Part shown: positions 17,222-43,552 of the stretch, piece by piece
How the letters are laid out: each line of letters opens with the position of its first letter
Position numbering within the stretch: the first letter of the stretch is position 1
NCBI GenBank assembly: GCA_964512835.1
Contig: CAZELA010000001.1
Location: forward strand, 105,372-169,371
Direction: 5' to 3'
DNA from: an uncultured Candidatus Saccharibacteria bacterium
GTDB taxonomy: Bacteria > Patescibacteriota > Minisyncoccia > Phycocordibacterales > UBA2100
DNA length: 64,000 bases
Position numbers and translations under genes: made by a program
The notes under the pieces: generated by a model
Databases searched by the model: none
The model's input: the letters and a program-made list of their open reading frames with translations, nothing else
What the model was told of the DNA's origin: nothing

Positions 17222-17992
17222 GTGCCAGGCAGGAACATTCTCCATAACGAACCACCGTCGAAATCAGTAGCCGCGTACCTGAACAACGGCTCCCGAGCTT
17301 TCGTGGAGACGCGATGCGGCAAGGTGTTCTCGTACGACAACACCCGGCCCAAGGGCCAGCGGTTCAAGGAGGAGGCGCTTGGATTCCATCCGGGCTTCTT
17401 CATGCAGCCGGCGCTGAGCCGGCAGCTCGGCAACCCGGTCCTCACGGTGGACCCGGGTGAGTATCCGTTCACGGACTTCGAGAACCTCATGGAACTCAAG
17501 AGTCGAACGTACGAAGCGCTCACATTCTTCCTGCATTCGCTCAACATCGAGTTCGAGCCGGCAGATCGCGAGATGTATGCCCGCAAGGCGACGCATTTGC
17601 TGAAGGAGGACGCCGTTCGTGCGGAAGTCGAGCCAGTGCTCATCCGCAATCCGATGCCGCCGAACTTCGACACCACGTATGGTCCCAAGGAGGATCACGC
17701 GGGTCGCATTTTGCAGGCGATGATCGAGACCTGGCGTCCGGCCGATCCGAACGAACCGCGCGAATACGCAGTCTCGTTCCGTCGCGGCAAAAAGATCCAC
17801 GATCTTGCGCCGGGCGACGGCGCGTTGCTCGTCGATTATTTGCGAGCCCAGGGCATCGAGATCGTCGAGATCATGCAAACGCAGGAGATGGTGATCGTGA
17901 AGCTCACGGTCCAAGGCGCGAGCGATCTGTATGACGCGATTCACGCCACGTGCCACGTGGTCCTGCGCACGACCGGCACGGTCAAGGTCTGA
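17222..17992 (+). CDS. hypothetical protein (very high GC3 codon usage)
   Basis: GTG start with an AAAGGAGG RBS; composition is protein-like while the antisense ORF is Arg-rich; the stop is embedded in CTGATCTTTCAACTG. Confidence 0.6.
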   Translation: MPGRNILHNEPPSKSVAAYLNNGSRAFVETRCGKVFSYDNTRPKGQRFKEEALGFHPGFFMQPALSRQLGNPVLTVDPGEYPFTDFENLMELKSRTYEALTFFLHSLNIEFEPADREMYARKATHLLKEDAVRAEVEPVLIRNPMPPNFDTTYGPKEDHAGRILQAMIETWRPADPNEPREYAVSFRRGKKIHDLAPGDGALLVDYLRAQGIEIVEIMQTQEMVIVKLTVQGASDLYDAIHATCHVVLRTTGTVKV

Positions 17993-18007
17993 TCTTTCAA
18001 CTGTTTC

Positions 18008-18039
18008 AAAAGCCGGGTTCGCACCCGGCTTTTTGTTGT
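18008..18039 (+). terminator. rho-independent terminator
   Basis: AGCCGGGT-tcgc-ACCCGGCT followed by TTTTGTTGT. Confidence 0.7.
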
Positions 18040-18053
18040 ATACGGGTGTTACG

Positions 18054-19301
18054 ATGAGCGGCATCATGATGCTGTCGCTGACACAGTTCCGTGCGCTTCG
18101 TCCGCAGGTGCGGGCACTCGTGTACCTCTATTGGATCTACATGTTCGCTACCGCTGTGATCGGCGTGTTCACCCAGATCTACGTATATCAAACGTTCAGC
18201 AGCGTCTCGTTCAATATCGTTACCTCGATGCTCAGCTTTACCGGACTGATGCTCAGTTTCTGCGGGTACGGTGCGGTCGCTGCGCGCCTCGGTATCAGTT
18301 CTCGCTACGGGTTCCTCCTCAGCTTTTTGTTCACGAGCGTGGGCATCGTTATGCTTGCCGGAGCGGGGGATATTCCGGGCGCGGCGTCAGCAATGACCAT
18401 GATAGGCACGGGCGCGGGATTCTTTTGGCTCACGATTCATACGTATGAATTGGTCGAAACGCACGATCACGAACGCGACGTGTATTCTACGTACCTTTCT
18501 GCGGGTACGCAGATCATTTTTCTCGTCGGTCCTGCTGTTGCAACGGCGCTCATTTACACAGCTCACGTACTCGGTTGGTCCGAGCTCGTCCTTCTGTTCC
18601 TCGCAACGCCGTTTATATTCATATTGGGATTTTTCTTTTTTGACTCACTGTCGGATTACCGACCGGCCCCGATACGGGGAGTGGATGTCGCGCACTTTGT
18701 CTCCGATTCCCGTAATCGGGCTGCACAGCTCTACCTGTTCGGGGGAGCCGCCTCGCACATTCTCCAGGAATCACTCCTGCCGCTCGTACTCATTACCGTG
18801 CTCGGCACTACGCTACATGTCGGTAGTTTTAATACCGTCTTTGCTATCGTGGGTGCGGCTGCGCTCTTACTCGTCGGTGCGCATCGTCACTCGGGGAATC
18901 GGCTGCACATACTCGGTATCTGCGCAGGCGTGATCATGATCCTCAGTATTCTCCTCGGGCATGCACTCTCGGTCCTGATGCTCATTGTGTACGCATTCGG
19001 CACCAACATCGCGCAGCCGCTGTTGCGTGTGTCGGAGCACGTGATCGATCTGCAAACACTCGGTTCCGTCGGGCATCACGAAAGCGACTTTTATCCCACG
19101 ATGATTTTCCGCGATTTCTCGCTCTGGGCGTGGCGCATGGTGGCCGGCTTTGCGCTCCTTGCCGTTATTTCGTCGGTCGATGTCGATGCGCAGGCGCTCA
19201 CGATCGGTATGTACTTTATCGCCGGCTCGTTTGTACTGTTGTACGTGGGTGCTTCTATACTCCTCGCCGCACAGAAGCGCTCGCAGGGTGGCGCGGCATA
19301 G
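18054..19301 (+). CDS. polytopic membrane protein, possible MFS-type transporter (about 12 TM)
   Basis: Start trimmed to MSGIMML, past the upstream terminator; hydrophobic throughout. Confidence 0.5.
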   Translation: MSGIMMLSLTQFRALRPQVRALVYLYWIYMFATAVIGVFTQIYVYQTFSSVSFNIVTSMLSFTGLMLSFCGYGAVAARLGISSRYGFLLSFLFTSVGIVMLAGAGDIPGAASAMTMIGTGAGFFWLTIHTYELVETHDHERDVYSTYLSAGTQIIFLVGPAVATALIYTAHVLGWSELVLLFLATPFIFILGFFFFDSLSDYRPAPIRGVDVAHFVSDSRNRAAQLYLFGGAASHILQESLLPLVLITVLGTTLHVGSFNTVFAIVGAAALLLVGAHRHSGNRLHILGICAGVIMILSILLGHALSVLMLIVYAFGTNIAQPLLRVSEHVIDLQTLGSVGHHESDFYPTMIFRDFSLWAWRMVAGFALLAVISSVDVDAQALTIGMYFIAGSFVLLYVGASILLAAQKRSQGGAA

Positions 19302-19352
19302 GGGATGCGGTTTTTATGTACTCGCGAGTCGAAGGGGCGTAGTATTCCACGT

Positions 19353-19928
19353 ATGATCTCGGATTCGCAGATATTCATTGTGGTTGACATCGAGGCCGAC
19401 GGCCCCGATGTCGGCCTGCATTCCATGCTCAGTATTGCGGCGGTCGCCACGACCGAAACTTCAGAAGTATCGCGGTTTTATCGCAAGCTCGCGGTATTGC
19501 CGGGTGCGACCACGTTCCCGCAAACGATGGAGTTTTGGAGCGAATTTCCCGAGGCGTGGAAAGAGGCGACCACCGACCCCGAGCCGCCCGAAACCGTCAT
19601 GAAAGATTTTTATGACTGGGTCCAAGGCCACGGCCGCGAAGCGATATTTGTCGCAAATCCGACCAGTCTCGATTACGTATTTACCACGTGGTACCTCGCG
19701 CGGTTTGCACCGGGCAATCCCTTCCGCAGTTCAAACAACAGCATCCGCGCGCTCGACCTCAAGTCGTATGTCGCGGCCAGATACAACTTTACGTTCGATG
19801 AAGCCAAGCGCACCAACTGGCCGCCGGAGCTCACGCAGGGCATGCCGGAGCACACACACAATGCGCTTGACGACGCTGCCGGATACGCAATCGTGTTACG
19901 GAATCTTATCGCGCTCGGTGGTACGTAA
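19353..19928 (+). CDS. 3'-5' exonuclease, DEDDh (DnaQ-like) family
   Basis: Exo I motif IVVDIEADGP and Exo III motif HNALDDAAGYA; start trimmed to MISDSQ. Confidence 0.7.
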   Translation: MISDSQIFIVVDIEADGPDVGLHSMLSIAAVATTETSEVSRFYRKLAVLPGATTFPQTMEFWSEFPEAWKEATTDPEPPETVMKDFYDWVQGHGREAIFVANPTSLDYVFTTWYLARFAPGNPFRSSNNSIRALDLKSYVAARYNFTFDEAKRTNWPPELTQGMPEHTHNALDDAAGYAIVLRNLIALGGT

Positions 19929-19985
19929 GGCTGCTCTCTGAAAGCAACACAGGATACTCTGCGTTTTGCAGGCTAGAATATTCCG

Positions 19986-20795
19986 ATGCGAACCGGAGCA
20001 TTCCTCGAGGCAGGGGGCAACAAAGTCTTTTTTGTGAACGGCGTGCTTTCGGAATTGTCGCGCGTGGGTATATCGCTCGACTATCTGGCGGGCTTCAGCT
20101 CGGCAGCGCCTATCATCCTCGCGCATTTTGCGGGGCTGCACACACCTATACTCGAGGATTTTACGGGACGGCTCGACGCGAACAAAAAGAATTTCTACTG
20201 GTTCAAGCGCCCGCATTTTCCGCAGGATCGCATTTACGGCGGTGCTGTACACGCGCTCGTGCACGAATACCGCACACATCTGCCGTTCGGGAGCTTTGCG
20301 ATATATGGCGCCGCAACTAATCCCACGTATCCCGTACTCAAGAGCCTGACTGCATCCTTTTTTCTACTTGTGCGATATGGCCTCCGCATCAATCTGCTGC
20401 CGCTTGCACGATGGCTGCTCGGCATTGAACAAATAACGATCGACGAAGAAACCGATATGAGTCGCGAGCGACTCGCGCGGTTCATTATGGGTTCGTCGTC
20501 GCTGTATCCGTATATCAGTCACTATCGAGTCGGGCATCATCTGATCCTCGAGGGAGCGCTGCTCGAAGTTGATCCCATCCAGGCGCTTTCGGAGTGCGAA
20601 AAGAAAATCATTATCCATACCGAACGAGGAAAGACGGGGATTGAGAACGGTGTATTCCACATCTACGCGAGCGAACCAATTCCGGAAAATATCCTTGATT
20701 ACACGAACGGCGATGCGATCCGTGCGCTTCACGCACATGGCAAAGAGGTGGCCCATCGCCACCTCTTGGAAATCAAAGACTTTCTCTCCGCGTAA
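19986..20795 (+). CDS. divergent patatin-like phospholipase-domain protein
   Basis: LEAGGNKVFFVNGVLSEL...DYLAGFSSAAP parallels the patatin GGGxKG / GxSxG blocks with substitutions (GG-NK, GFSSA). Confidence 0.4.
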   Translation: MRTGAFLEAGGNKVFFVNGVLSELSRVGISLDYLAGFSSAAPIILAHFAGLHTPILEDFTGRLDANKKNFYWFKRPHFPQDRIYGGAVHALVHEYRTHLPFGSFAIYGAATNPTYPVLKSLTASFFLLVRYGLRINLLPLARWLLGIEQITIDEETDMSRERLARFIMGSSSLYPYISHYRVGHHLILEGALLEVDPIQALSECEKKIIIHTERGKTGIENGVFHIYASEPIPENILDYTNGDAIRALHAHGKEVAHRHLLEIKDFLSA

Positions 20796-21512
20796 CTATT
20801 TCTTCTTCGTTGTCGTCGTCGCTGCGGTGCTCGTCGATTGTTTGAGTGTCGAGAGTTCCGGCAGCACCTGCTCGATGTCGTCCATCGTGTGCAGTCCGTA
20901 ATAGACCTCGTTGTTAATCACGAGTGCAGGCATTTCGTCGCGGATGTTATTGATGTCGACGAGGGTGCGGAGTGCCGAGTTAGTGAGGTTGTAGTCAAAC
21001 GAGTAGATTCGCAGTGTCGGGTACTTCTGTGCGAGACCGGTCAGCACATAGCCCTGCTGCTCGCACTCTTTGCAGTCACCGGCGTTGGAATAGAAGTATA
21101 GGATGAACACCGGCTTCAGCTTGCACTTGTCGGCCACTTTTTGCATGAGCAGCAGGTCTTTGATCTGGAGCAGGGTGTAGTAGCGCTTGAGGCCCATCAG
21201 TTCATCCTGGTTTACCTGCGACTGTGATTCCAGATAGGAGAGTCGCTGTGCGAGCGGCTGGATTTCGGTCGACAGTACCGAATTCTCGGAAATGTCTTTG
21301 CATGAATGCTCGGCCAGCAGGTCGAACTGTGTTTCGAGCGATAGGATGTCGATCGAGATCTTATCTTGTGTCGCCTGGATATCAACGACACGGCGATTAT
21401 TGAAATAGTTCGACGCGTAGACCGCCGTCGCAAAAATAAATGCGGTGATCAAAAAGGCTACGATGTAGCTCGAAAGTCGGGCGGTGCGCGTGTTTACGAC
21501 AGGATCTTCCAT
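20796..21512 (-). CDS. membrane-anchored thioredoxin-fold protein with a CxxC (DCKEC) motif, possible thiol-disulfide oxidoreductase
   Basis: N-terminal TM; FILYFYSNAGDCKECEQQ resembles a Trx/DsbA active site; immediately follows the GT2 gene. Confidence 0.4.
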   Translation of the reverse strand: MEDPVVNTRTARLSSYIVAFLITAFIFATAVYASNYFNNRRVVDIQATQDKISIDILSLETQFDLLAEHSCKDISENSVLSTEIQPLAQRLSYLESQSQVNQDELMGLKRYYTLLQIKDLLLMQKVADKCKLKPVFILYFYSNAGDCKECEQQGYVLTGLAQKYPTLRIYSFDYNLTNSALRTLVDINNIRDEMPALVINNEVYYGLHTMDDIEQVLPELSTLKQSTSTAATTTTKKK

Positions 21513-21531
21513 AGAGACTATTCTATTCGAT

Positions 21532-22758: not shown

Positions 22759-22841
22759 AGTTCAGTATTATACCAAATTTTGGCCAAATTTCTACCCCCT
22801 GTGGCGCTTACAGTGTTCATGCGCGGGGTATACTAGCCCGA

Positions 22842-23573: not shown

Positions 23574-23575
23574 CT

Positions 23576-25832: not shown

Positions 25833-25882
25833 AAAAAGAAAGCTCCTGCACGGTTTCGTGCAGGAGCTTCGTTTCTGAAAGG

Positions 25883-26347
25883 TCAGCGCGGTTGTGCGGT
25901 CGCGTATGTCGGGTACGACCGTCCGCATGGAGCGAACATCTCGGTGAGCTGTCTGCCCTTGAGATTGATGAGCGTCGGCGTCAATCCGCCGTTCCGGCGG
26001 ATCCACTGTTGCACGTCGCTCGGGTACAGGCTGAAGAGCAGATTCGTTGCTTCGGAGTTGGTGAGTGCCGTCCCGTTCGGTCCCGGGTCCCACGCTGCGT
26101 GAAAGGCAAAGTCGGCCTTCGGTGTCACGCAGATGCGGTCACGCGGAATTGAGCCGAGGAGAATGGTGCACGCCGATGCGCAGAGGCCGTCCACGACGAC
26201 CAATAGATTCTGAGCACGCATCTCCTTGAACTTTTCCATATACGTTCCGATCTGGCCGCCGCGGTCACCGGCGACGACCACCTGTGCCTGGGCACAACAG
26301 TAGGTGAGGATGAGCATGGTCAGTGCCGTCAAAAGGCGATACGCCAT
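25883..26347 (-). CDS. hypothetical secreted protein
   Basis: Signal peptide MAYRLLTALTMLILTYCCAQA; no homolog recognised. Confidence 0.5.
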   Translation of the reverse strand: MAYRLLTALTMLILTYCCAQAQVVVAGDRGGQIGTYMEKFKEMRAQNLLVVVDGLCASACTILLGSIPRDRICVTPKADFAFHAAWDPGPNGTALTNSEATNLLFSLYPSDVQQWIRRNGGLTPTLINLKGRQLTEMFAPCGRSYPTYATAQPR

Positions 26348-33009: not shown

Positions 33010-34977
33010 ATGGCAGCTCAATCCCGCACGAAGGGAATCGGATTTTCATTTTTGCAGACACTCGGCACGGCGTTCATCGCGCTCGTGCTCTTCGGATTTG
33101 CGATGTTGCTTGTGATGCGCGCGAATGCGCAGTTTTCTATGAATGATTCGCATGGCATCGCGAAACTTTTTACCGCGCGCGCAGACGGCGGAGGCGGCGA
33201 CTCGGGCGGCGGTGGTGACTCAGGTGGTGGAGGAGACAGCGGCGGCGGAGGGGATTCCGGCGGCGGAGGGGATTCCGGCGGAGGCGGCGACTCGGGCGGC
33301 GGCGGTGACTCAGGTGGTGGAGGAGACAGCGGCGGCGGCGACGGCGGCGGTTGTTCAGGCTGTGGCTGCGGCGGCTTCTGCTACCCGCAGTGTCCGGCGG
33401 GAACGACCGGTGTGTATCCCATCTGCATTCCGCAGACATGCCCGGCAGGAACAACCGGCACGTACCCGAACTGCACAACCATTCAGTGTCCGGCGGGAAC
33501 AACCGGCACCTACCCGAATTGCACGACGCTGCATTGTCCTGAAGGAACAACCGGCACGTACCCGAACTGCACGACCATTCAGTGCCCGGCGGGAACCACC
33601 GGTACCTATCCGAACTGCACGACGATCCAATGCCCGGCGGGAACGACGGGAACCTACCCGAACTGCACGACGATCACATGCCCTGCAGGTACAACGGGAA
33701 CGTATCCGAATTGCACACCAAACACGGGATGCATCGACGTGCTGAAGGAAACGTACAACACGCTCGGTCTTCCGATCATGCCGGTTGCACAGTTCTCGTT
33801 TAAGCTCGATGGGGGAACGCAGACCGTGTTCAACAACTCTGCCGGTAACGCACGATTCACCGGCGTCTCGGTCGGTGCACACACCGTAACGGAAACTCCG
33901 GTTGCCGGATGGGCACTTATTTCCACGACGCCGCAGGGCGGCATCGTAAATGTGCTTGCTGGTTCGCAGTGCGTGACGGTTGTATTCAAAAACAAGCAGG
34001 TTATCAACGAATGCCCGGCAGGAACGACAGGCACGTACCCGAACTGCACGACCATTCAGTGCCCGGCGGGAACCACCGGTACCTATCCGAACTGCACGAC
34101 GATCCAATGCCCGGCGGGAACGACGGGAACGTATCCGAATTGTGTTTCTATCCAGTGTCCGTCGGGTACAACGGGAACGTATCCTAATTGCGTCTCGATC
34201 CAATGTCCGGCAGGAACATACGGCACGTACCCGAACTGCATCCAAATCCTGTGCCCGGCCGGGTCAACCGGCACGTACCCGAACTGCTACACGCAGCAGT
34301 GTCCGGCAGGGACGTACGGAACCTATCCGAACTGCTACACGCAGCAGTGTCCGTCGGGAACCACCGGGACGTACCCGAATTGTTACTCGCAGCAGTGCCC
34401 CGCAGGAACCTACGGAACCTACCCGAACTGCGTCCAGATCTTGTGTCCTGCAGGTTCAACGGGAACCTACCCGAACTGCCTCACGCCGCAGGCTCCGTAC
34501 TGCACACTGACCGCAAACCCGACATTCGTTTCGCACGGTCAGAGCTCAACGCTGTTCTGGTCGTCGCAGAATGCGATCAACGCGCAGCTCTCATCGTTCG
34601 GAACGGTCGGTGTGAACGGCTCGACGAACGTATCGCCGTACCAGACGACGACGTACACACTCACCGTGTGGAACAATCAGGGCCAGCAGGCAACCTGCCA
34701 GACGACGGTGCAGTTGAACTATCAGCCGCCGTATAATCCGCCGACCTACTACCCGCCGCAGCCTCCGACGATTTATCCGCCGATCACGTACTACCCGCCG
34801 AGCATTCCCGTTTCAAACATCCCGTACACGGGAACGGGTTCGACGACCGGCAACGTGATCCTCATGAGTCTCATCGTTCTTGCATCAATCTCCGGTGCAT
34901 ACTTGATTCTGTACTCACGGGGCGGTGCACGGAACATGCTTGTCGAAGCGGGCATCCTGCAAACCTCGCGACTCTAG
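33010..34977 (+). CDS. repetitive cell-surface protein: (GGGGDS)x8 linker, 17 copies of a 16-aa CPAGTTGTYPNCTTIQ repeat, and a C-terminal IPYTG sorting signal
   Basis: N-terminal TM/signal; repeats read directly; C-terminal IPYTGTG + hydrophobic helix + YSRGG tail; adjacent to the sortase gene. Confidence 0.8.
   Translation: MAAQSRTKGIGFSFLQTLGTAFIALVLFGFAMLLVMRANAQFSMNDSHGIAKLFTARADGGGGDSGGGGDSGGGGDSGGGGDSGGGGDSGGGGDSGGGGDSGGGGDSGGGDGGGCSGCGCGGFCYPQCPAGTTGVYPICIPQTCPAGTTGTYPNCTTIQCPAGTTGTYPNCTTLHCPEGTTGTYPNCTTIQCPAGTTGTYPNCTTIQCPAGTTGTYPNCTTITCPAGTTGTYPNCTPNTGCIDVLKETYNTLGLPIMPVAQFSFKLDGGTQTVFNNSAGNARFTGVSVGAHTVTETPVAGWALISTTPQGGIVNVLAGSQCVTVVFKNKQVINECPAGTTGTYPNCTTIQCPAGTTGTYPNCTTIQCPAGTTGTYPNCVSIQCPSGTTGTYPNCVSIQCPAGTYGTYPNCIQILCPAGSTGTYPNCYTQQCPAGTYGTYPNCYTQQCPSGTTGTYPNCYSQQCPAGTYGTYPNCVQILCPAGSTGTYPNCLTPQAPYCTLTANPTFVSHGQSSTLFWSSQNAINAQLSSFGTVGVNGSTNVSPYQTTTYTLTVWNNQGQQATCQTTVQLNYQPPYNPPTYYPPQPPTIYPPITYYPPSIPVSNIPYTGTGSTTGNVILMSLIVLASISGAYLILYSRGGARNMLVEAGILQTSRL
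33187..33342 (+). repeat. 18-bp tandem repeat encoding (GGGGDS)n
   Basis: About 8.5 imperfect copies of ggcggNggNggNgaYtcN. Confidence 0.8.
33391..33729 (+). repeat. 48-bp tandem repeat array 1 (7 copies, CPAGTTGTYPNCTTIQ module)
   Basis: In-frame coding repeats. Confidence 0.8.
34012..34491 (+). repeat. 48-bp tandem repeat array 2 (10 copies of the same module, more diverged)
   Basis: In-frame coding repeats. Confidence 0.8.
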
Positions 34978-37072: not shown

Positions 37073-37097
37073 CATGAAAAGGGGGTTAGAGAATCAT

Positions 37098-37188: not shown

Positions 37189-38109
37189 ATGGCAATCGAA
37201 GTCATCGCACGCGGCAAGATCCACGCCGGCAAGAAAAGCGGCAACAACTTCCGCTTTCAGCCCGGCAGGACGCAGGGTATCGGCAAAACCGCCAATCAGA
37301 CCCTGTTCCGCTCGCTGACGTACGTTCGCGGCACGATCGCCGGGACCGACGACGGCTCGTTCAAGTACGGTGCGGTGATGGGACCCAACCAGGTGGTGTC
37401 GGGATCGGGTAATCACGCGATCCTCGATCCCAACTCCAAGGTCATCCCGGTCGTTGCGAGCAACGACACGCAGCTCGTGCCGATCCGGAAGTTCTACACG
37501 CCGGAGGAGCTCAAGAAGCCGCATCACCAGCGCGTCGCCAAGACGTTCATCGACTGGGCATCGTTCCAGTCGCAGCAGAACGGCGAGGCCAGCCTCGTGA
37601 AGTATCTCGGCAACAACACGGTGAACGTCGAGATCTGGACCGGCCTGTTCGAGAAGATGACCGAGGAAATGTACCAGCTCATCTTCGGGCTGGAGCATGG
37701 ATCGATCAACTACTCGGGCAGCAAGACTGTCGCCAGGGCCAAGAAGAAGTTGGTCGTCGACGAAACTGCGCCGGAAGGCGAGGCGATCGTCGAGGCGAAG
37801 GCGAAGTTCTCGGCCAACCTCGTGCTCGAGGATCACGCGACCGTCGTCAACAACAACGACGTCCCGCTCTGGTCCGTGCGTACGTGGGAGATCGAGTACT
37901 CGCCCGGCGACAGCGCGATCGTGCTGGTGCGTCACTTCGACGCGTTCTACGTCGTCGAAGTGAAGAAGGGCGAAGAGCTCGTCATCACCAAGTACACCGA
38001 CAAGGACGCCGCGGTCTGGAAGCGTCGCTTCCTCAAGGACTGGTCGGCGGCGCTCGCGGCGGAACGCACGAAGGCGGAAATCGACGCCAAGCTCGCTTCG
38101 GCAGCCTGA
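37189..38109 (+). CDS. hypothetical protein, 306 aa, no signal peptide, very high GC3 / expression-optimised codons
   Basis: AGGAG RBS; strong promoter and terminator; the stop is embedded in CTGATCTTTCAACTG. Confidence 0.65.
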   Translation: MAIEVIARGKIHAGKKSGNNFRFQPGRTQGIGKTANQTLFRSLTYVRGTIAGTDDGSFKYGAVMGPNQVVSGSGNHAILDPNSKVIPVVASNDTQLVPIRKFYTPEELKKPHHQRVAKTFIDWASFQSQQNGEASLVKYLGNNTVNVEIWTGLFEKMTEEMYQLIFGLEHGSINYSGSKTVARAKKKLVVDETAPEGEAIVEAKAKFSANLVLEDHATVVNNNDVPLWSVRTWEIEYSPGDSAIVLVRHFDAFYVVEVKKGEELVITKYTDKDAAVWKRRFLKDWSAALAAERTKAEIDAKLASAA

Positions 38110-38133
38110 TCTTTCAACTGGGTCTATGACCCG

Positions 38134-38172
38134 CGCGCGGCAGTGTGAACTGCCGCGCGTTTTCTATTTTTT
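38134..38172 (+). terminator. rho-independent terminator of the hairpin-TTTTCTAT type
   Basis: CGCGCGGCAG-tgtgaa-CTGCCGCGCG followed by TTTTCTATTTTTT. Confidence 0.75.
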
Positions 38173-38190
38173 GTAAGCTATCATGAATGC

Positions 38191-40323
38191 ATGTCCGCAG
38201 AGGGCCCTCAGGAACCCAAACAAAGCTGGGAGAAAGTTCGATTACTGAAAACGAATGCGGGGCTGCTTTGGTATCGCACAAAAACGGGCGAAGTGGTCGT
38301 TCTCGACGATGCCGCAGAAATGGAGCGTGACCGACAGAACGATGAACCGGGCACTCCGCCGCAGGAAGGTTATCCGGAATTTTCCGGGCGTATCGGTACC
38401 GAGGAGTTGCCGGTTACCGACGCAAATGAGATTGAGCAGAAACGCGCCGACCTCCATACGCTCGTCAATAACCTCGTCGATATTTCTACCGACTTGCGTA
38501 CGAACCTGGTGGAAGAGATCGTTGCCGCGGAGGACGACGGCGACCTCGAAGCAATTCGGCAGGGTATTGATCAATTGCTGAAAGACAAGCGCGATGCAGC
38601 GCGAGCGGCAGGTTCGGCTGCAGGACCCGCCGGTGGTGCGGCAGGGGGAGCAGCGGGCGCGGGTGCACAGACTGTGGACCAGCTGTACGACGAAACGAAG
38701 CAGAAGCACAAAGATAAGACCGCGCGTAAGCGCGCGATGCAGCGTGCGGAGCGCGATGCGATAGCGGAGCTCGATGCCGAAGAATCGGCTGCGAATCCGC
38801 TTGTGCCGAAGACTGACGACGAGGTCTTTACCGATATAGAAAAAGCAGAGGCCGATAGACTCTCCAAGCGGGATCTTGAGGATCGTGCAAAGAAAAAGGC
38901 AAAAGATGCATTCGATGCCGCGAAGGCCGCGGCACGCGTGCAGGCTGAGCAGGACGCTCAAGCAGAGAATGCGGCGAAGGTTGCGGCTGAGTTAGCGTTG
39001 GACAAGGATTACTACAACGCCCGGTTCGATAACCTCCGGCTCCACGGCATCATAGATGACACGAACGCAGTTTTTGCGCAGGACGAGGTCGCGAACGCGC
39101 AGACGAGCGAAGCGCTACGCGAGCGGTTTGATACGGAGCTCCAGGGATTAGAGTCGCGACTGCCCGAAAACCCTGCGCCGCCGGATCATGGGATCAACGC
39201 TGTCCGCAATGATACGGAATTTGCACAAATGACCGTCGAAGCGATACGCAACATCGAAGCGGTGATCGCGGTGGGCGGCAATGCAAACAGTTTGTACCAG
39301 CGGTACCGCAAACGTCTCCGTGCAGGCGATTTGAAACAGTTCGATACGAGTCTTGCACGACGCGAGAAACTGACGGGCAAACAGTTCGGTATTGATTACC
39401 GCACTATGACTCCGGCAGAGCGATTGCGAATCATGAATCCGCCCCCTGGCTTTGCAAACAGATACACGGCTAACGGTCGGATTGATCGCATCTGGATGGC
39501 GCACGATTCTGCGAAATATAAAGATCTCGTGCCGTTTTCGATGGAGGAGATACGAACGGACGATAAGAAAAAGGTCCTCTACGACCGCTTTATGAAAGCG
39601 ATCGAATACGATAATTCGCTCAAAGCCACAGTCGAGGCGGGGCAACCGTTTGATGATGCACAGCGGCAACTGCAGGAGTATTCGCAGTATGAGTTCACGT
39701 ATCAGTACAAACGTGCCGAAGTGTTGAGCGAGATGTTCACGCCGGAATTCACGAAAAAGCTCATTTATCAGAATGAATTTGTGAACTCGATCGCGGTCAT
39801 GTACGGCGTCGAGAAAACAGCCGCATTTTTGAAAGACGACGTGTTTCGTATCGCGGTTGAAGATCTCGGAACCTTTGATCGGCTCGCGCTTGCGGCCTCG
39901 CGCCTCCAGCATCTGGGTAGTGGACGATTCACAGCGATGAGTCGGGGTGAAGAGCAATTCGACATGGCTGAGATTTTTGAAACGCGGCTTCGCGATGCGG
40001 ATATACAAACCGCCATTCAGAAGGAGGCTGCGACCGGTACGAAGACGGTGGAGATGCTACCGCCCGCAAAAGAAATGAAAGACGAATTTTCTGCGGCGAA
40101 CCTGCAGAAATATTTCGACCGCGACAAAATGAAGGCAAAGATCGGCGACCGGGGCTGGGACAAGTGGACTGCGGCGGAGCGCGCAGACTTTAAGCGCAAG
40201 TGGGAGCCGGAAGAGGTCGTTAAGCGACGCGAACACAAAGAAGCGGGGCTCTACGCGCAGCTGAAGGCGGTTCTTATGGAGTCACTGTTCGGAGAGCAAA
40301 AGAAGCAGGTGAAGGCTCACTAA
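38191..40323 (+). CDS. large acidic hypothetical protein (710 aa), coiled-coil rich, Ala/Gly-rich linker
   Basis: Long ORF with protein-like composition; no TM; no recognised domain. Confidence 0.6.
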   Translation: MSAEGPQEPKQSWEKVRLLKTNAGLLWYRTKTGEVVVLDDAAEMERDRQNDEPGTPPQEGYPEFSGRIGTEELPVTDANEIEQKRADLHTLVNNLVDISTDLRTNLVEEIVAAEDDGDLEAIRQGIDQLLKDKRDAARAAGSAAGPAGGAAGGAAGAGAQTVDQLYDETKQKHKDKTARKRAMQRAERDAIAELDAEESAANPLVPKTDDEVFTDIEKAEADRLSKRDLEDRAKKKAKDAFDAAKAAARVQAEQDAQAENAAKVAAELALDKDYYNARFDNLRLHGIIDDTNAVFAQDEVANAQTSEALRERFDTELQGLESRLPENPAPPDHGINAVRNDTEFAQMTVEAIRNIEAVIAVGGNANSLYQRYRKRLRAGDLKQFDTSLARREKLTGKQFGIDYRTMTPAERLRIMNPPPGFANRYTANGRIDRIWMAHDSAKYKDLVPFSMEEIRTDDKKKVLYDRFMKAIEYDNSLKATVEAGQPFDDAQRQLQEYSQYEFTYQYKRAEVLSEMFTPEFTKKLIYQNEFVNSIAVMYGVEKTAAFLKDDVFRIAVEDLGTFDRLALAASRLQHLGSGRFTAMSRGEEQFDMAEIFETRLRDADIQTAIQKEAATGTKTVEMLPPAKEMKDEFSAANLQKYFDRDKMKAKIGDRGWDKWTAAERADFKRKWEPEEVVKRREHKEAGLYAQLKAVLMESLFGEQKKQVKAH

Positions 40324-40325
40324 GT

Positions 40326-40538
40326 ATGGACGAAAACGACATCAAGGAAATCGTACAGAAATTCGAAGCGACCGTACCGCCGGGGGATGATGAGGCGGCG
40401 CGCGTGTTTTTTGAAGAAGTGTTCCCGAATTTCTCGCAGGATTTGAAAGACGCGTTTTTGCGCGAGGCACTCGTGAGCGCCATCGAGCAATCCGCCGAAG
40501 AACTCATGGCGGGGCGAAAGGGTGATTCCGAGGCTTGA
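40326..40538 (+). CDS. small acidic hypothetical protein (70 aa), translationally coupled
   Basis: ATG lies 2 nt after the upstream TAA; its stop TGA lies inside the downstream TTGACA. Confidence 0.45.
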   Translation: MDENDIKEIVQKFEATVPPGDDEAARVFFEEVFPNFSQDLKDAFLREALVSAIEQSAEELMAGRKGDSEA

Positions 40539-40626
40539 CAGAGCCGTATTTTTATGAATTAATATTGCCGGCATCCGATCGGAGGATCGGTATAGTCGTA
40601 GTACGAACAAACCTGCGGAGGGCACC

Positions 40627-41508
40627 ATGGCGGACATCGCCGCGGCGCTTGCCGCTTTCACGCTCGCTCTATGGTCGCTCGGTATCGTGCTCATGAGCAC
40701 GGTGTATCAAGAGACCGGTGTACTGCTTGCGGCACTCGGGTTTCTGACCGGAGTGATGCACGCGATACTGCAATGGCGATCGGCGAACTCGGAATCGCAA
40801 CTTCAACCTGAACGTACAGAAAGGAATGAAACCATGACTGCACCCGAAGCTTCGGCTGCACAGCCGGTCCACATTCACCCGATGGTGGGGAAGGAGAGTC
40901 ACTTCGTCGCGTGGGTCGGATTCTTTTCGACCCTGTTGGTGAGCTTGCTCATCTTCTCGATCCTGACCGGCAACTGGATCCCGCCGACGTTCGCCATCGG
41001 TGACGCGTCGGTCGGCCCGGAGACGTACATCCCGATCATGGCGATGATCGTCTATCACTACCAGGTCAAGGTCTCGCTCGAACGTCCGGACACGCTCTTC
41101 TACGCGTGGCTGGATCTCATCGGCTCCGTGCTTCCGTTCGCGATCGCATTCATCGCGATCATGTCGTGGTTCCCGGCGGTCCGTTGGATCTTGGAGACCA
41201 TGCGGCTCTGGATCACGCCGTACACCACGCTGACACTGGTGACCGCCGGCACGTATCTCATCCTCTCGGCATGGGACGTGTTCTGGAATCACTGGCGTCG
41301 GTCGCGTGTGTTTGGGCATGGCGGCGGCGCGAGCAATGCGTTCATCGATGATGTCATCATCGGGCAGGGGGTCTCGCGCAAGCGCGTCATGCCGCTCGAG
41401 ATCATCTGGGAACCGCAGCACTTCGTGCAGCAGCCCGACGGCACGCTTCGTCGCGTGCAGCCCGAGCTGATCGAGCAGCAGACCGGTCCGGCGCCGGAGA
41501 CCCACTAA
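40627..41508 (+). CDS. hypothetical polytopic membrane protein (high GC3)
   Basis: GGAGGG RBS; 6-7 TM; flanked by the split halves of the 5757 hairpin. Confidence 0.6.
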   Translation: MADIAAALAAFTLALWSLGIVLMSTVYQETGVLLAALGFLTGVMHAILQWRSANSESQLQPERTERNETMTAPEASAAQPVHIHPMVGKESHFVAWVGFFSTLLVSLLIFSILTGNWIPPTFAIGDASVGPETYIPIMAMIVYHYQVKVSLERPDTLFYAWLDLIGSVLPFAIAFIAIMSWFPAVRWILETMRLWITPYTTLTLVTAGTYLILSAWDVFWNHWRRSRVFGHGGGASNAFIDDVIIGQGVSRKRVMPLEIIWEPQHFVQQPDGTLRRVQPELIEQQTGPAPETH

Positions 41509-41536
41509 ATACGGCTCTACGACGAGCTCTTTCGAC

Positions 41537-41572
41537 CCGGCGGCACAGCGATGTGCCGCCGGTTTTCTATTT
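41537..41572 (+). terminator. rho-independent terminator of the hairpin-TTTTCTAT type, abutting a TTGACAAA promoter
   Basis: CCGGCGGCACA-gcga-TGTGCCGCCGG followed by TTTTCTATTTGACAAAAG. Confidence 0.75.
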
Positions 41573-41599
41573 GACAAAAGTGATTTTATATGATACTTT
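41571..41599 (+). promoter_or_regulatory. promoter TTGACAAA-N17-TACTTT
   Basis: TTGACAaaagtgattttatatgaTACTTT. Confidence 0.45.
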
Positions 41600-41659
41600 A
41601 TCTGCGGTCTCTTTCCGTACAGGAGAGGGTTTTACAGTCACACAAACATGGGAGGCGTA

Positions 41660-42301
41660 ATGGCCGCTCCGGTATCACCGGGATCGCGATGGCGTATCCC
41701 GATCGTCACACCGCAGCCGTATGTCGTGCCACCTCGGCCCGTGCATGCAGCTGCTCCGGTAGTTTCCAACCAACAGCCTTCCTCGCACGAAGATGCGCGT
41801 ATGCGCGGCTTCGAGGACGGCAGGGCATATCAACGAAATGGAGGTCAGAATATGTCTGCGAAGGCCGACGACCACGGACATCACGGCAGCGGTCCGCCCG
41901 AGGGGGTAAAAAAGGCCCTCTGGTGGATCGGGGTGATCCTGATTGCGTTCCTGTTGTTCAATTGGTTCACGACCGCCTGGGATCGGTTCACCGATCCTGT
42001 CGGCTTCCGCGCCAATGAACAGCAGCGCGTGATCGACGATCTGAAGGATCGTCTGCGCGCGTACCAAAGCGGCGATGTCGGTCCGAGCCCTCGCGGTGGC
42101 ACGGGCGGCAACATCTCGCGGCTCGGAAACAACAATGCGCCTCGTCAACCGACGGCACAGGAGATCTGGGATCGTACGTTCCATCGCACGACCAGTACCT
42201 GCGCCCCGTGCGATCAGACCAGGGGATGGAATTACATCCAGGACCCCGAAACCTGTCAGTGCGATGCGGCTCGGTGGCGGCCTGGTCCGCCCCCGCGCTA
42301 A
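41660..42301 (+). CDS. single-pass membrane protein with a C-terminal Cys4 domain (CAPCDQTRGWNYIQDPETCQCD), paralog A
   Basis: GGGAGG RBS before ATG 41660; central TM helix; the last 34 aa are identical to 42482..42979. Confidence 0.6.
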   Translation: MAAPVSPGSRWRIPIVTPQPYVVPPRPVHAAAPVVSNQQPSSHEDARMRGFEDGRAYQRNGGQNMSAKADDHGHHGSGPPEGVKKALWWIGVILIAFLLFNWFTTAWDRFTDPVGFRANEQQRVIDDLKDRLRAYQSGDVGPSPRGGTGGNISRLGNNNAPRQPTAQEIWDRTFHRTTSTCAPCDQTRGWNYIQDPETCQCDAARWRPGPPPR

Positions 42302-42342
42302 GTGATCTTTCGTCCTCAAATCGAAACAATTGCGGGGACATG

Positions 42343-42375
42343 CAGACGGCTAGCGATAGCCGTCTGTTTCTTTTG
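42343..42375 (+). terminator. rho-independent terminator
   Basis: CAGACGGCTA-gcga-TAGCCGTCTG followed by TTTCTTTTG. Confidence 0.7.
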
Positions 42376-42381
42376 TAGCCC

Positions 42382-42409
42382 TTGACAAAAAGGGTAAATA
42401 TGGTAATAT
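42382..42409 (+). promoter_or_regulatory. promoter TTGACAAA-N16-TGGTAATAT
   Basis: TTGACAaaaagggtaaataTGGTAATAT. Confidence 0.55.
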
Positions 42410-42481
42410 TCTCATTAGAAGGGAGGTACCATTCGGTGCTTTCCGCTTCACATCACACAATTACAGAAAGAGGAGTGGCCA

Positions 42482-42979
42482 ATGAACAGGCTTATCGTTG
42501 CTCTCTGTGCGATTGCGTTCTTCGCATTCGCATCGCTCGGCACGGCGTCCGCGCAATACGGAGCCGGTGTCGGCACCGGCGGTACCATGGCTCTTCGCCA
42601 GGGCGTTCCGCATGCCCAGACTGTCTACGAGGACCAATGTCGGCGCATCGGTGCATATAACCATCCGATGTGCATGACCGGTCAGCGTCGTGGTCACGGC
42701 CATGGTGTTCAGGGCCGTCGCGTGATCCCGGTTTTCGCGACCGGCGCACACTACGACCGTCGCGTGGCAGCTGGGCACTACGGCCGCACAGCCGTGGTTC
42801 GCCCCGTGGCACCCCCGCCGCCCCCGCCTTCGGCACAGCAGATCTACTCTGCAGTGCCGCACAAGACGGTCAGCGTCTGCGCCCCGTGCGATCAGACCAG
42901 GGGATGGAATTACATCCAGGACCCCGAAACCTGTCAGTGCGATGCGGCTCGGTGGCGGCCTGGTCCGCCCCCGCGCTAA
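42482..42979 (+). CDS. secreted protein with a C-terminal Cys4 domain, paralog B
   Basis: AAGAGGAG RBS; signal peptide; His/Arg/Gly-rich middle; Pro7 linker; identical C-terminal 34 aa. Confidence 0.65.
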   Translation: MNRLIVALCAIAFFAFASLGTASAQYGAGVGTGGTMALRQGVPHAQTVYEDQCRRIGAYNHPMCMTGQRRGHGHGVQGRRVIPVFATGAHYDRRVAAGHYGRTAVVRPVAPPPPPPSAQQIYSAVPHKTVSVCAPCDQTRGWNYIQDPETCQCDAARWRPGPPPR

Positions 42980-43019
42980 GTGATCTTTCGTCCTCAAATC
43001 GAAACAATTGCGGGGACAT

Positions 43020-43052
43020 GCAGACGGCTAGCGATAGCCGTCTGTTTCTTTT
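43020..43052 (+). terminator. rho-independent terminator (duplicate of 42343)
   Basis: Same hairpin within repeat copy 2. Confidence 0.7.
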
Positions 43053-43059
43053 GTAGCCC

Positions 43060-43087
43060 TTGACAAAAGGGGTAAATATGTTAATAT
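43060..43087 (+). promoter_or_regulatory. promoter TTGACAAA-N16-TGTTAATAT (duplicate)
   Basis: Within repeat copy 2. Confidence 0.55.
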
Positions 43088-43147
43088 GGCAGAGGAAGGT
43101 AATCACATCCGTGATCTACCCGAAATGGCAACCATCGGAGGAATACC

Positions 43148-43537
43148 ATGCAGATTCGTATCGCCCTTGCCCTCGTGCTCGCTCTCGCCACGACCTCGGT
43201 CTACGCTCAGGCGCCCAAGAGCTACAATCCGGGACGTGTCGAGGTCGCTGCTCCTCAGCAGCAGGTGCCGCCCGCGATCGCGAAGGCGAACGCCCAAGCT
43301 GCTCCCGCTGCTCCCGCTGCTCCCGCTGCGCCGGCCCCCAAGGTCGACCGCGCCGAGGAAGCTCGCCAGGAGATCGCGCAGTGGCACAAGGCCCGCAAGG
43401 ACTGCTACAACGCGCTCGGCCTCAAGGAAGGTGTGCACTATCGTCTGAATCCGGCGGATGCGAACAACTACCAGGTGCTGAAGCAAGCGCACTTGATGTT
43501 CAACTCGGCCGGCATCACGAAGTGCGACGCCATCTGA
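43148..43537 (+). CDS. small secreted protein (129 aa, 2 Cys, PAA repeats)
   Basis: GGAGG RBS; signal peptide; high GC3; the stop is inside CTGATCTTTCA. Confidence 0.6.
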   Translation: MQIRIALALVLALATTSVYAQAPKSYNPGRVEVAAPQQQVPPAIAKANAQAAPAAPAAPAAPAPKVDRAEEARQEIAQWHKARKDCYNALGLKEGVHYRLNPADANNYQVLKQAHLMFNSAGITKCDAI

Positions 43538-43552
43538 TCTTTCACTACCGGA

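Follow-up and report, generated by a model that had tools for sequence, protein, structure and literature searches.

A conserved 8-nt RNA motif at the stop codons of unrelated genes resembles BoxA and is a possible Nus-factor site

Results

A nine-base motif lies at the stop codons of unrelated genes

Several unrelated genes in the 64-kb window (the whole stretch of DNA analysed here, from a tiny uncultured bacterium), and in its relatives, carry a short RNA motif, UGAUCUUU (UGAUCUUUCAAC as RNA), on or directly 3' of their stop codons. The exact 9-mer TGATCTTTC occurs five times in the window, at 17990, 38107, 42303, 42981 and 43535, always on the + strand and at a distance of 0 to 4 nt from a called stop (5/5). 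The motif's own TGA is the stop of the ORFs 17222..17992, 37189(37168)..38109 and 43148..43537, while ORFs 41648/41852..42301 and 42482..42979 end with TAA, followed by a G and then by TGATCTTTC. The 15-mer CTGATCTTTCAACTG has exact matches starting at 17989 and 38106. An earlier sequence-only reading of this DNA had described the five copies at or near stops, the shared 15-mer and an expectation of about 0.5 copies, all of which check out. Because copies 42303 and 42981 share one 222-nt direct repeat (42188-42409 / 42866-43087, 97% identical), there are four independent motif sites and not five. The copies and their hairpins are as follows.

17990..17998, + strand: motif copy 1, TGATCTTTC, which supplies the TGA stop of a 256-aa hypothetical gene (17222-17992, family F2); extended form TGATCTTTCAACTG
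18008..18034, + strand: intrinsic terminator hairpin with T-run, 9 nt 3' of copy 1
38107..38115, + strand: motif copy 2, which supplies the TGA stop of a 306-aa hypothetical gene (37189-38109, family F1, GC3 0.88)
38120..38132, + strand: small 5-bp hairpin GGGTC-TAT-GACCC, 4 nt 3' of copy 2, in a boxB-like position
38133..38160, + strand: intrinsic terminator of the 306-aa gene, then TTTCTATTTT; stem conserved, with 2 compensatory pairs
42303..42311, + strand: motif copy 3, 1 nt past the TAA of a Cys-rich gene ending at 42301 (family F3)
42342..42367, + strand: terminator 3' of copy 3, then the promoter of the next paralogue (TTGACA-16-TAATAT)
42981..42989, + strand: motif copy 4, within 42866-43087, the second unit of the 222-nt repeat, and so not independent of copy 3
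43020..43045, + strand: terminator 3' of copy 4, a duplicate of 42342-42367
43535..43543, + strand: motif copy 5, which supplies the TGA stop of a 129-aa secreted protein gene (43148-43537, family F4)
43553..43578, + strand: G+C-rich hairpin without T-run, 9 nt 3' of copy 5
25877..25885, - strand: one-mismatch variant TGACCTTTC, at the stop of 25883-26347(-)

The L007 and L015 orthologues lack the one-mismatch variant, which may be due to chance. Hairpins follow all five exact copies, as the sequence-only reading had claimed of terminators, but the last has no T-run. The motif block itself is predicted to be unpaired in nearly all minimum-free-energy folds, in which one or two hairpins then follow. 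The motif-bearing genes have strong promoters, 5' purine-rich boxes and hairpins, high GC3 and strong 3' hairpins; their assignment to one high-GC3 codon class reflects a real association, but not an exclusive one.

How surprising is this pattern? Shuffles give an expectation of 0.56 copies of TGATCTTTC, and no shuffle gives five. However, 473 distinct 9-mers recur at least five times in the window even when tandem-repeat genes are excluded, a shared exact 15-mer is expected about 2-4 times by chance per 64 kb (our estimate), and the motif was picked after the fact, all of which would suit a chance or compositional by-product of T/C-rich 3'UTRs. Copy number by itself is thus weak evidence, and the earlier argument that five hits could not be chance holds for their position and not for their count. 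The non-random part is the position: TGATCTTTC is the only 9-mer in the window scan with more than three copies at called stops (5/5), and no 7-mers rank above TGATCTT and ATCTTTC in the zone from the stop to +30 (5 observed vs. 0.25 expected).

The stop-overlapping 9-mer is a special form of a wider 3'UTR box

Among 5-mers, TCTTT shows the strongest enrichment in the spacers between stop codons and terminators, being present in 9/42 vs. 0.86 expected, a count that 0/2000 shuffles reach. The spacers of relatives give 11/26 vs. 0.51 expected, and those of the outgroup L010 0/11. The stop-overlapping 9-mer is a special form of a wider box, G-N-TCTTT, located 0-10 nt upstream of 3'UTR hairpins, with a density of about one copy per 6-7 kb. 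Free 3'UTR forms are GCTCTTT, GTTCTTT and GGTCTTT; such related boxes lie 13-38 nt past TAA, TAG or TGA stops, adjacent to the hairpin and not to the stop:

6562..6570, + strand: cGCTCTTTG, with GCTCTTT as an exact BoxA core, 13 nt past the stop of 5869-6552; terminator 6574-6598 follows after 3 nt
8464..8472, - strand: aGTTCTTTA, in the 3'UTR of 8507-9091(-), directly before the terminator
41525..41533, + strand: aGCTCTTTC, 20 nt past the TAA of 40627-41508; terminator 41537-41562 follows after 3 nt; matched in position by GGTCTTTTG in the L008 orthologue
56651..56659, + strand: aGCTCTTTGaaac, 3'UTR of 56322-56636; terminator 56666-56687 follows after 6 nt

Both this wider box and the resemblance to BoxA described below go beyond the sequence-only reading.

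An 8-nt block is conserved while its surroundings diverge

Conservation across relatives is the decisive evidence for the motif. We compared syntenic loci of related Paceibacterota genomes with 47-82% protein identity, an evidence base of about 170 kb from one narrow clade. The 8-nt block TGATCTTT is kept at the orthologous stops of four unrelated gene families, while the flanking codons and the 3'UTR diverge. In a logo of 20 stop-site copies, from these four families and up to seven genomes, exactly eight positions (TGATCTTT) carry 1.5-2.0 bits; position 9 has 0.8 bits and every flank at most 0.7. Five F1 orthologues have gccTGATCTTTC, one has TGATCCTTC and one TAAcgTTCTTTC, and the outgroup orthologue of F1 has lost the motif. 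The F2 orthologues in L018 and L019 keep TGATCTTT(T/G) after a different preceding codon, the orthologous F3 paralogues in L008 take the motif's TGA as their stop, and the F4 orthologues have TGAtcTGATCTTTC in L008 and TGAttgTTCTTTC in L007. The earlier proposal that the motif is a 3'-end element conserved as termination context or for binding by a protein or sRNA is supported in general by this sharp block, which persists at about 50% protein identity, is predicted to be single-stranded and lies ahead of a hairpin. Given the sharp edges, the replication in relatives, the absence from the outgroup and a TCTTT count that composition-preserving shuffles never match, we regard chance as extremely unlikely.

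The same comparison bears on whether the motif is a functionless DNA relic, either of gene 3' ends shared by duplication or of a mobile cassette boundary (integron attC-like or REP/RAYT-like). Two copies do belong to the 222-nt duplication, the small genes are arranged in tandem, each as a promoter-ORF-terminator unit, some terminators are alike (repeat families D9 and D13), and a Y1-transposase-like gene lies directly upstream of the window. However, extended flanks align for just 2/5 copies, which disposes of a single recent duplication as the source of all of them, and F1 and F2 encode unrelated proteins (hhalign probability 0.3%). Across species the loci are in synteny, with the block fixed as neighbouring bases change; the hairpin sequences vary between sites, unlike those of REP elements, and all copies point in the gene's sense orientation. 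The relic explanation, which the sequence-only reading had offered as a recombination trace, is largely refuted by the orthologues and very unlikely.

Where the stop codon has moved, TCTTTC stays, either out of frame or displaced downstream (TAAgTGATCTTTC, TGAtcTGATCTTTC, TAAcgTTCTTTC, TGAttgTTCTTTC); the block is retained after a stop shift in four separate lineage/family cases. This speaks against an extended translation-termination signal, in which UGA plus UCUUUC in the mRNA channel of the terminating ribosome would optimise RF2 release or suppress read-through in heavily translated genes. In favour of such a signal, the motif's TGA is a real stop at 3/4 independent sites and in most orthologues, every F1-F4 copy lies 0-5 nt from a stop, the block ends at +9, i.e. 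two codons past the stop, and TGATC follows 5 of the approximately 21 TGA stops in the window, T at +4 being the classical strong stop context. Known extended contexts (the bacterial +4 U, or the six-base CARYYA of plant-virus read-through) likewise lie directly 3' of the stop in the ribosome's mRNA channel. Bacterial contexts are, however, statistical biases of one to three bases, whereas the motif is an exact 8-mer that survives displacement, and we know of no bacterial stop context that is equally long or exact. The G-N-TCTTT boxes 13-38 nt past stops, and the ribosomal-protein and EF-Ts genes of the window, which end with TAA and lack the motif, also count against it. As a sole role, translation termination is therefore weakened, and we consider it unlikely.

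The motif resembles BoxA

BoxA is the RNA site through which the Nus antitermination proteins are recruited. NusB-NusE reads exactly 8 nt of BoxA (UGCUCUUU in E. coli, GGCUCCUU in Aquifex), with G2, C5 and U/C6 as the critical positions (PMC3177189). The motif block has the same length, is predicted to be single-stranded, and matches the E. coli BoxA at 7/8 positions including G2, C5 and U6, although the host lineage's own BoxA may differ. G2 and C5 are invariant in the motif, and position 6 varies only from U to C (L014, TGATCCTT), a change also present in the Aquifex BoxA. The shared 15-mer, written TGATCTTTCAACT, aligns with the rrn boxA TGCTCTTT-AACAA, and the motif's continuation ...CAAC resembles the ...AACA of BoxA. 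In addition, GYTCTTT, the core of the consensus published as GYTCTTTAANA (10.1101/091223), is matched exactly by four free copies in the window. A small hairpin lies 1-5 nt 3' of the motif in two families, as boxB follows boxA in nut sites. For a post-hoc match, we estimate the chance of a 7/8 agreement with one of a few dozen known motifs at 0.05-0.1.

A candidate reader, a canonical NusB judging by its sequence, is encoded in the window:

54011..54931, + strand: NusB fused to a NUDIX hydrolase domain (TIGR01951, 111 bits vs. a cut-off of 88)

The BoxA-contacting helix (AINEAIELAKxFG..FVNGVL) is conserved between this NusB and that of E. coli. No canonical leader BoxA was found in the window; one leader candidate beside nusB was rejected as coding sequence.

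There are also clear differences. The motif lies at the ends of protein-coding genes, on the stop and 10-40 nt before an intrinsic terminator, whereas known BoxAs are in promoter-proximal leaders; that distance may be too short for complex assembly. At position 3 the stop-overlapping copies carry A and three copies from relatives carry G, where known BoxAs have C or U, and the density of the motif contrasts with a handful of known BoxAs per genome. To our knowledge, BoxA elements occur in leaders and spacers upstream of their targets, and none lies 10-40 nt before a gene-end intrinsic terminator. The rrn-type complex of E. coli acts mainly against Rho and less on intrinsic terminators.

Discussion

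We tentatively propose that the motif may act as a BoxA/nut-like Nus-factor site and modulate the terminator that follows it, our favoured reading, which we hold as possible without calling it probable. There is precedent for BoxA acting beyond rRNA operons: such sites are active and can either inhibit or promote termination, as in the suhB 5'UTR and other non-rRNA targets, where BoxA regulates ordinary genes (10.1101/091223). Those sites, however, are located within 50 nt 5' of a start codon, where their action is on translation initiation and Rho, and none is reported in a 3'UTR (10.1101/091223). For recruitment of the complex BoxA is both necessary and sufficient, and the lambda N form is resistant to intrinsic terminators (PMC10250234).

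A positional parallel comes from the E. coli tna operon. Here, the motif is found immediately beside a stop codon, and Konan and Yanofsky (2000) reportedly described a boxA-like sequence adjoining the tnaC UGA stop. Because that element directly adjoins the UGA, a ribosome at the tnaC stop can mask or expose it, coupling the end of translation to the termination decision. The tna element works with a rut site and Rho, in a leader peptide and upstream of structural genes, whereas the present motif comes after full-length genes and ahead of hairpin terminators; the motif sites show no evident rut-like C-rich tract.

Other proteins that bind single strands could recognise the pyrimidine-rich UCUUU core just as well. 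Candidates are a cold-shock-domain protein, ribosomal protein S1, KhpA/KhpB and an Hfq-like protein, any of which might occupy the bare RNA from the last ribosome to the 3' hairpin, setting mRNA stability or hairpin melting and marking a post-transcriptional regulon; Csp proteins can melt terminator hairpins. The block is short, sharp-edged, pyrimidine-rich, predicted to be single-stranded and hairpin-adjacent, the genes bearing it look made for stable, abundant mRNA, and a KhpA gene is present in the window (61231-61620). The B. subtilis CspB consensus GTCTTTG/T, bound as a single strand, shares the TCTTT core, with the strongly preferred C at position 3 placed as in the motif and T strongly preferred at 2, 4 and 6 (PMC1904285). 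The window copy aaGTCTTTG at 20774-20782(-) suits this consensus better than BoxA. Against such a binder, the CspB site is 7 nt with G-TCTTT, whereas the block is 8 nt with an invariant G two bases before TCTTT, which is the BoxA spacing, and its length is closer to the NusB-NusE site than to the 6-7 nt of a cold-shock domain or the 4 nt of a KH site. The available sequence showed no csp or hfq gene. On balance, we see another binder as rather unlikely, if worth keeping in mind.

The arrangement of a single-stranded stretch, one or two hairpins and a U-rich tail also resembles 3'UTR-derived sRNAs and the Hfq-binding module. An endoribonuclease site at the ORF/3'UTR junction might free a hairpin-bearing sRNA with a 5' UCUUUC seed, or start mRNA decay once the stop is uncovered. 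The stop-codon position would suit translation-dependent protection, and the small F1 hairpin is maintained by compensatory changes, its stems differing among orthologues while still pairing (GGTC/GACC, GAGTC/GACTC, GGATCC/GGATCC, GGCTC/GAGTC). However, RNases E and Y are loosely specific and would have no need of an exact 8-mer, a search of the window and the compared loci found no conserved target complementary to the motif (GAAAGATCA), and several unrelated genes would have to yield sRNAs with the same seed. Processing of this kind seems quite unlikely to us.

Returning to the BoxA-like reading, the element would be an 8-nt single-stranded U-G-N-U-C-U-U-U, often followed by C-A-A-C, which the polymerase transcribes just as the ORF ends. 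Since U-G-A is tolerated at positions 1-3, the first three bases of the box can serve as the stop codon, and this double use would explain why the overlapping form always employs TGA. As RNA polymerase leaves the ORF, the nascent box would be bound by NusB-S10, possibly together with NusA or S1, and in two families the small adjacent hairpin could take a boxB-like role, giving a nut-like layout. The Nus-modified polymerase would then meet the intrinsic terminator 10-40 nt downstream with an altered termination efficiency. The effect could go in either direction, allowing read-through into the next gene or assisting termination at imperfect U-tracts.

A short motif at the stop codons of unrelated genes

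The recurrent motif that the sequence-only reading had noticed at gene ends is real, and broader than described there. Its 15-mer CTGATCTTTCAACTG is found exactly at 17989 and 38106, and the 9-mer TGATCTTTC occurs five times in the window.

Copies of TGATCTTTC in the window (n = 5)
17990, + strand: its TGA is the stop codon of the 256-aa gene (17222-17992)
38107, + strand: its TGA is the stop codon of the 306-aa gene (37189-38109)
42303, + strand: behind the first Cys-rich paralogue (stop TAA ending at 42301, next G, next the motif)
42981, + strand: behind the second Cys-rich paralogue (stop TAA ending at 42979, next G, next the motif)
43535, + strand: its TGA is the stop codon of the 129-aa secreted-protein gene (43148-43537)

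Dinucleotide shuffles expect 0.56 copies and none reaches five, but the count, on which the original case against chance had partly leaned, proves little: 473 distinct 9-mers outside tandem-repeat genes occur at least five times, and a few shared 15-mers are expected by chance per 64 kb. What argues against chance is position, since all five copies of TGATCTTTC are at called stop codons, where no other 9-mer exceeds three, and the 7-mers within it top the enrichment ranking for the stop-to-+30 zone (5 observed vs 0.25 expected); coincidence is on this ground scarcely credible. The copies at 42303 and 42981, which had been counted separately, lie within a 222-nt direct repeat (97% identical), leaving four independent sites, and the terminators said to follow the motif are present as hairpins after all five copies, the one after 43537 lacking a T-run. 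The direct repeat (42188-42409 and 42866-43087) takes in the final 113 nt of the two Cys-rich genes together with the motif, the terminator and the promoter that follows. On the metagenome contig L004 a single Cys-rich gene precedes the 129-aa gene, so either strains differ in the array or this assembly has collapsed it. The common C-terminal 37 residues of the paralogues (CAPCDQTRGWNYIQDPETCQCDAARW..., 42188-42298 and 42866-42976) give weak, sub-cut-off Pfam matches to the VEGF heparin-binding domain, which probably reflect only cysteine spacing.

Conservation in related genomes

Syntenic loci were obtained via homologues of the 306-aa and 256-aa proteins; scans of genome and metagenome collections yielded three loci, two of them already in the set. 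Among 306-aa orthologues, gccTGATCTTTC is kept in five genomes, at protein identities to the window copy of 47-82%, one further genome has TGATCCTTC and one TAAcgTTCTTTCC, and nothing resembling the motif is present at the most distant 306-aa locus (L010/L011). The two 256-aa orthologues (66-68% protein identity) carry TGATCTTTT and TGATCTTTG, with a different codon ahead in each, and the 129-aa orthologues carry TGAtcTGATCTTTC and TGAttgTTCTTTC. Cys-rich paralogues end in aacTGATCTTTA in the loci L007 and L015, and in gaaTGATCTTTC and cagTGATCTTTC in L008, so that in L008 the TGA of the motif is itself the stop codon. The logo of 20 copies holds 1.5-2.0 bits at exactly eight positions, TGATCTTT, with 0.8 bits at position 9 and at most 0.7 in the flanks, and 17 of the 22 occurrences of TGATCTTT in about 170 kb of non-redundant sequence, placed on gene tables, are at gene stops. 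These patterns are those of purifying selection on a short element. A relic of duplication, like the earlier suggestion of a relic of recombination, is contradicted by a sharp-edged block kept at orthologous stops of unrelated proteins, and, even with two window copies inside a direct repeat, a DNA-level relic strikes us as very unlikely.

Measured from the stop codon actually used, the register of the block runs from 0 to +5 in the four families, and that of the related boxes from 13 to 38 nt. An extended RF2 stop context would suit the copies whose TGA ends the gene, but with such a variable register a fixed-register context is not what is found, and we consider this explanation rather unlikely.

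The 256-aa and 306-aa proteins are unrelated, a weak BLASTP patch (E = 0.002) being unconfirmed by profile comparison (probability 0.3%). The 306-aa protein has zero Pfam, PHROG, NCBIfam or PDB sequence matches, and a Foldseek search of the PDB with its AlphaFold model (pLDDT 67) gives none at E <= 0.001.

A wider box ahead of terminator hairpins

Spacers from stop codon to terminator hairpin were delimited for 42 window genes. TCTTT is their most enriched pentamer, found in 9/42 against 0.86 expected (0/2000 composition-preserving shuffles reach 9); in relatives it is found in 11/26 spacers against 0.51 expected, and in the outgroup L010 in 0/11. Four boxes in the window stand away from a stop codon, each 0-10 nt before a hairpin.

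Free boxes in the window
6562, + strand: cGCTCTTTG, not at a stop
8464, - strand: aGTTCTTTA, not at a stop
41525, + strand: aGCTCTTTC, not at a stop
56651, + strand: aGCTCTTTG, not at a stop

As read from these sequences, the general form is G-N-TCTTT-(C/G/A), of which TGATCTTTC would be the variant shifted back over the stop codon; since only TGA fits the N-G-N positions, TAA and TAG never serve as the stop in overlapping copies.

The 8-nt block is unpaired in nearly all minimum-free-energy folds. In all seven orthologues of the 306-aa family, single-sequence folds show the block followed, 1-5 nt on, by a hairpin of 4-6 bp and then by the terminator (RNAalifold found only the terminator, MAFFT having misaligned the variable-length loops). 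The small stems vary yet pair (GGGTC/GACCC, GGTC/GACC, GAGTC/GACTC, GGATCC/GGATCC, GGCTC/GAGTC), and the terminator stem has two compensatory pairs. A comparable small hairpin is seen in the Cys-rich family in L008 and L007; in the 256-aa and 129-aa families it is absent and the block runs straight into the terminator. An RNase site or an sRNA seed would be in keeping with an unpaired block; we hold this to be improbable.

Some terminators of unrelated genes are alike in stem and tail (38137-38169 and 41540-41572, GCGGCA...TGCCGC..GTTTTCTATTT), a second look-alike set being 6589-6609 with 42357-42377 / 43035-43055 (TAGC(G/C)GTCT(C/G)TTTCTTTTGTA). A C typically interrupts the T-tracts of this genome.

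Several other readings were tried and set aside. Complements of the GAAAGA type are present in the 5'UTRs of two motif genes only, so 5'-3' pairing is not general. Pairing with a generic 16S 3' tail amounts to UGAUC:GAUCA (5 bp), in a geometry that we reason to be wrong for a terminating ribosome. As a promoter, on either strand, the motif is unlike a -35 or -10 element with a correctly spaced partner, and as programmed read-through or selenocysteine insertion it would precede in-frame extensions that are short and unconserved between orthologues. The NusG pause motif TTNTTT is fitted only by rare GTTCTTT variants. REP/REPIN or integron attC-type repeats are at odds with hairpin sequences that differ between sites and with positions that are syntenic across species, and a DNA uptake sequence with only five copies in 64 kb, all in gene-sense orientation and all at stops. 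A RAYT/REP link was likewise dropped, the Y1-transposase-like gene adjoining the window having different flanking hairpins and lacking the motif. That gene (L020 2795-3475, ~0.8 kb upstream of the window start) encodes a 226-aa IS200-like Y1 transposase domain protein (PF01797, 28.7 bits), has a perfect 9-bp hairpin just upstream of its start, and may be a domesticated RAYT-type gene.

Genome and gene setting

The window has a G+C content of 56% and encodes DnaE, GyrB, a short PheT, ThrRS, SMC, NusB, RNase III, ribosomal proteins, a sortase and many hypotheticals, with a general tendency to one sigma-70-type promoter and one hairpin terminator per gene. A 565-kb NCBI contig carries identical copies of its proteins, as do JGI metagenomes 33000453xx; the closest named relatives are metagenome-assembled 'Candidatus Paceibacterota/Pacebacteria' genomes, and the source belongs to the small-genome bacteria of the candidate phyla radiation. 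A phage origin was rejected on the bacterial gene content (DnaE, GyrB, PheT, ThrRS, SMC, NusB), with no nucleotide match among phage records.

Promoters of the motif genes combine a consensus TTGACA with a TAnnAT -10 element, and the long 5'UTRs carry a Shine-Dalgarno-like, purine-rich box as well as a hairpin close to the 5' end. The proposed link to high GC3 was borne out in that these genes have values of 0.69 to 0.88. High GC3 is kept in the lower-GC relative L016 (SRR12900980 contig), where the 306-aa orthologue and several small genes have GC3 of 0.74-0.85 against 0.38-0.51 for housekeeping neighbours, so the high-GC3 class is gene-specific and conserved rather than a regional composition effect. 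Because ribosomal-protein genes in the window have average GC3 and lack the motif, the motif-gene class looks built for abundant, stable mRNA and not simply 'highly translated'.

In the tandem small secreted-protein genes the 5'UTRs open with a purine-rich box, AGGAGGAGG, AGAGGAAGG or AGAAGGGAGG (window 42410-42481 and 43088-43147; L007 12830-12982 and 13500-13641; L008 8600-8740), followed by a short hairpin some 50 nt ahead of the ribosome-binding site proper; the arrangement recalls STAB-SD, which stabilises the mRNA of Bacillus cry genes. Downstream of the 306-aa gene, a 710-aa gene (window 38170-38193; L007, L008, L014-L017) appears leaderless, with no Shine-Dalgarno sequence and a conserved -10 element (TATCAT, TACCAT or TACGAT) 6-7 nt ahead of the ATG that directly abuts the T-tract of the upstream terminator. 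The stop codon of a conserved 70-aa gene is embedded in the consensus promoter gcTTGACAgagccgtatttttatgaatTAATAT (window 40529-40560), which drives the next gene and is kept in L008 (6188-6220). Two large repeat proteins are encoded at 33010-34977 and 44341-45840, one with 18-nt (GGGDS-type) and 48-nt tandem repeats, the other with a signal peptide, 30-nt repeats for the motifs YDAGS and YNPGYYETDS, and a membrane anchor at its C-terminus. In L018 (GCA_018061585, 2060-2500) a truncated 5' tRNA-Thr fragment, a GIY-YIG endonuclease ORF and a complete tRNA-Thr follow one another, which looks like a mobile insertion at a tRNA gene; the window tRNA-Thr (16337-16412) is uninterrupted.

Likeness to BoxA

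The element (in RNA UGAUCUUU) equals E. coli rrn BoxA UGCUCUUU at 7/8 positions. The match was made post hoc, which counts against the BoxA reading, as does the chance that the lineage's own rRNA-leader BoxA differs. The alignment of the shared 15-mer with rrn boxA sets TGATCTTTCAACT against TGCTCTTT-AACAA. In the NusB-NusE-BoxA crystal structure, base-specific contacts are made with exactly nucleotides 1-8, and transversions are not tolerated at G2, C5 and U/C6 of BoxA (PMC3177189). The information block here likewise has eight positions, predicted to be unpaired, and relative to the BoxA core (U/G/C)-G-Y-U-C-U/C-U-U, G2 and C5 never vary, while U at position 6 gives way only once, in a relative, to C, which is the Aquifex state. 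Position 3 is less compliant: it is C/T in the four free copies, whose GCTCTTT and GTTCTTT form the core of the published consensus GYTCTTTAANA (10.1101/091223), but A in stop-overlapping copies and G in three copies from relatives, which speaks against BoxA.

Placement differs as well. BoxA sits in a leader or spacer upstream of the controlled region, and the element, although upstream of a terminator, is at the gene 3' end and only 10-40 nt from it, which again counts against the reading. The small stem-loop after the block in the 306-aa family recalls a lambda-type nut site (boxA + boxB), but its loops are not GNRA-like pentaloops, and we know of no N-like protein. No leader BoxA was found in the window, and neither it nor any fetched locus contains an rRNA operon; a candidate leader BoxA upstream of nusB, GCTCTTTGAAC at 54052, falls inside the nusB reading frame, which starts MANRHLARSVALQVLFERD.

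Putative reader encoded in the window
54011-54931, + strand: NusB fused to a C-terminal NUDIX hydrolase domain, passing the NCBI equivalog cut-off TIGR01951

Its BoxA-contacting helix is near-identical to that of E. coli NusB, the F122 equivalent included. Automatic calls start the gene at 54089 or 53783 (longest ORF); the conserved NusB N-terminus starts at ATG 54011.

We came across no published account of a BoxA-like element that is fused to a stop codon and precedes an intrinsic terminator; the closest parallel is reportedly a boxA-like sequence adjoining the tnaC stop codon. Searches with the motif string returned primers and siRNAs only, Rfam finds one tRNA and no known RNA family over the 3'UTRs, and the element belongs to no curated family. 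BoxA is necessary and sufficient for recruitment of the Nus complex (PMC10250234), can either prevent or promote termination (PMC12360218), and also regulates non-rRNA genes (10.1101/091223). We tentatively favour, at well short of even confidence, a BoxA-like site, nut-like in two families, that may alter how polymerase handles the terminator behind it. Departure of the ribosome from the ORF would expose the element, which would then change the behaviour of RNA polymerase at the terminator just downstream, in either direction; such binding and effect are what we infer from the likeness. The UCUUU core could equally serve other single-strand binders, such as cold-shock proteins with their consensus GTCTTTG/T (PMC1904285), and another RNA-binding protein as reader is a lesser but real possibility.

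A bolder form of the BoxA-like reading, which we put forward as a long shot, is that this Paceibacterota clade took BoxA from rRNA antitermination as a widespread 3'-end tag, present about once every 6-7 kb and in many cases merging into the UGA stop. The lineage's unusual NusB-NUDIX fusion would read the tag; translation termination would pass the transcript directly to a Nus-type complex, which would choose between read-through and release at the next hairpin. Alternatively, that complex, by way of the NUDIX domain, would tag these mRNAs, which are unusually stable, for 5'-end-dependent turnover.

Significance

To our knowledge, bacteria of the candidate phyla radiation have tiny genomes and few recognisable regulators, and their control of expression is almost unknown. 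A conserved 8-nt element at the boundary of translation and transcription termination, on some of the clade's most expression-optimised genes, is a concrete, testable handle on it, and the box could in practice improve terminator and 3'UTR annotation in such genomes. If it is a working BoxA, ordinary genes would have Nus factors at work at their 3' ends, and a transcription-factor binding site could include a stop codon, neither of which, as far as we know, is established for any bacterium. Were the 3'-end tag true, it would give bacteria of minimal regulatory repertoire a new level of gene control; even with another reader protein, the element defines a small, unannotated regulon of abundant, lineage-specific surface or secreted proteins.
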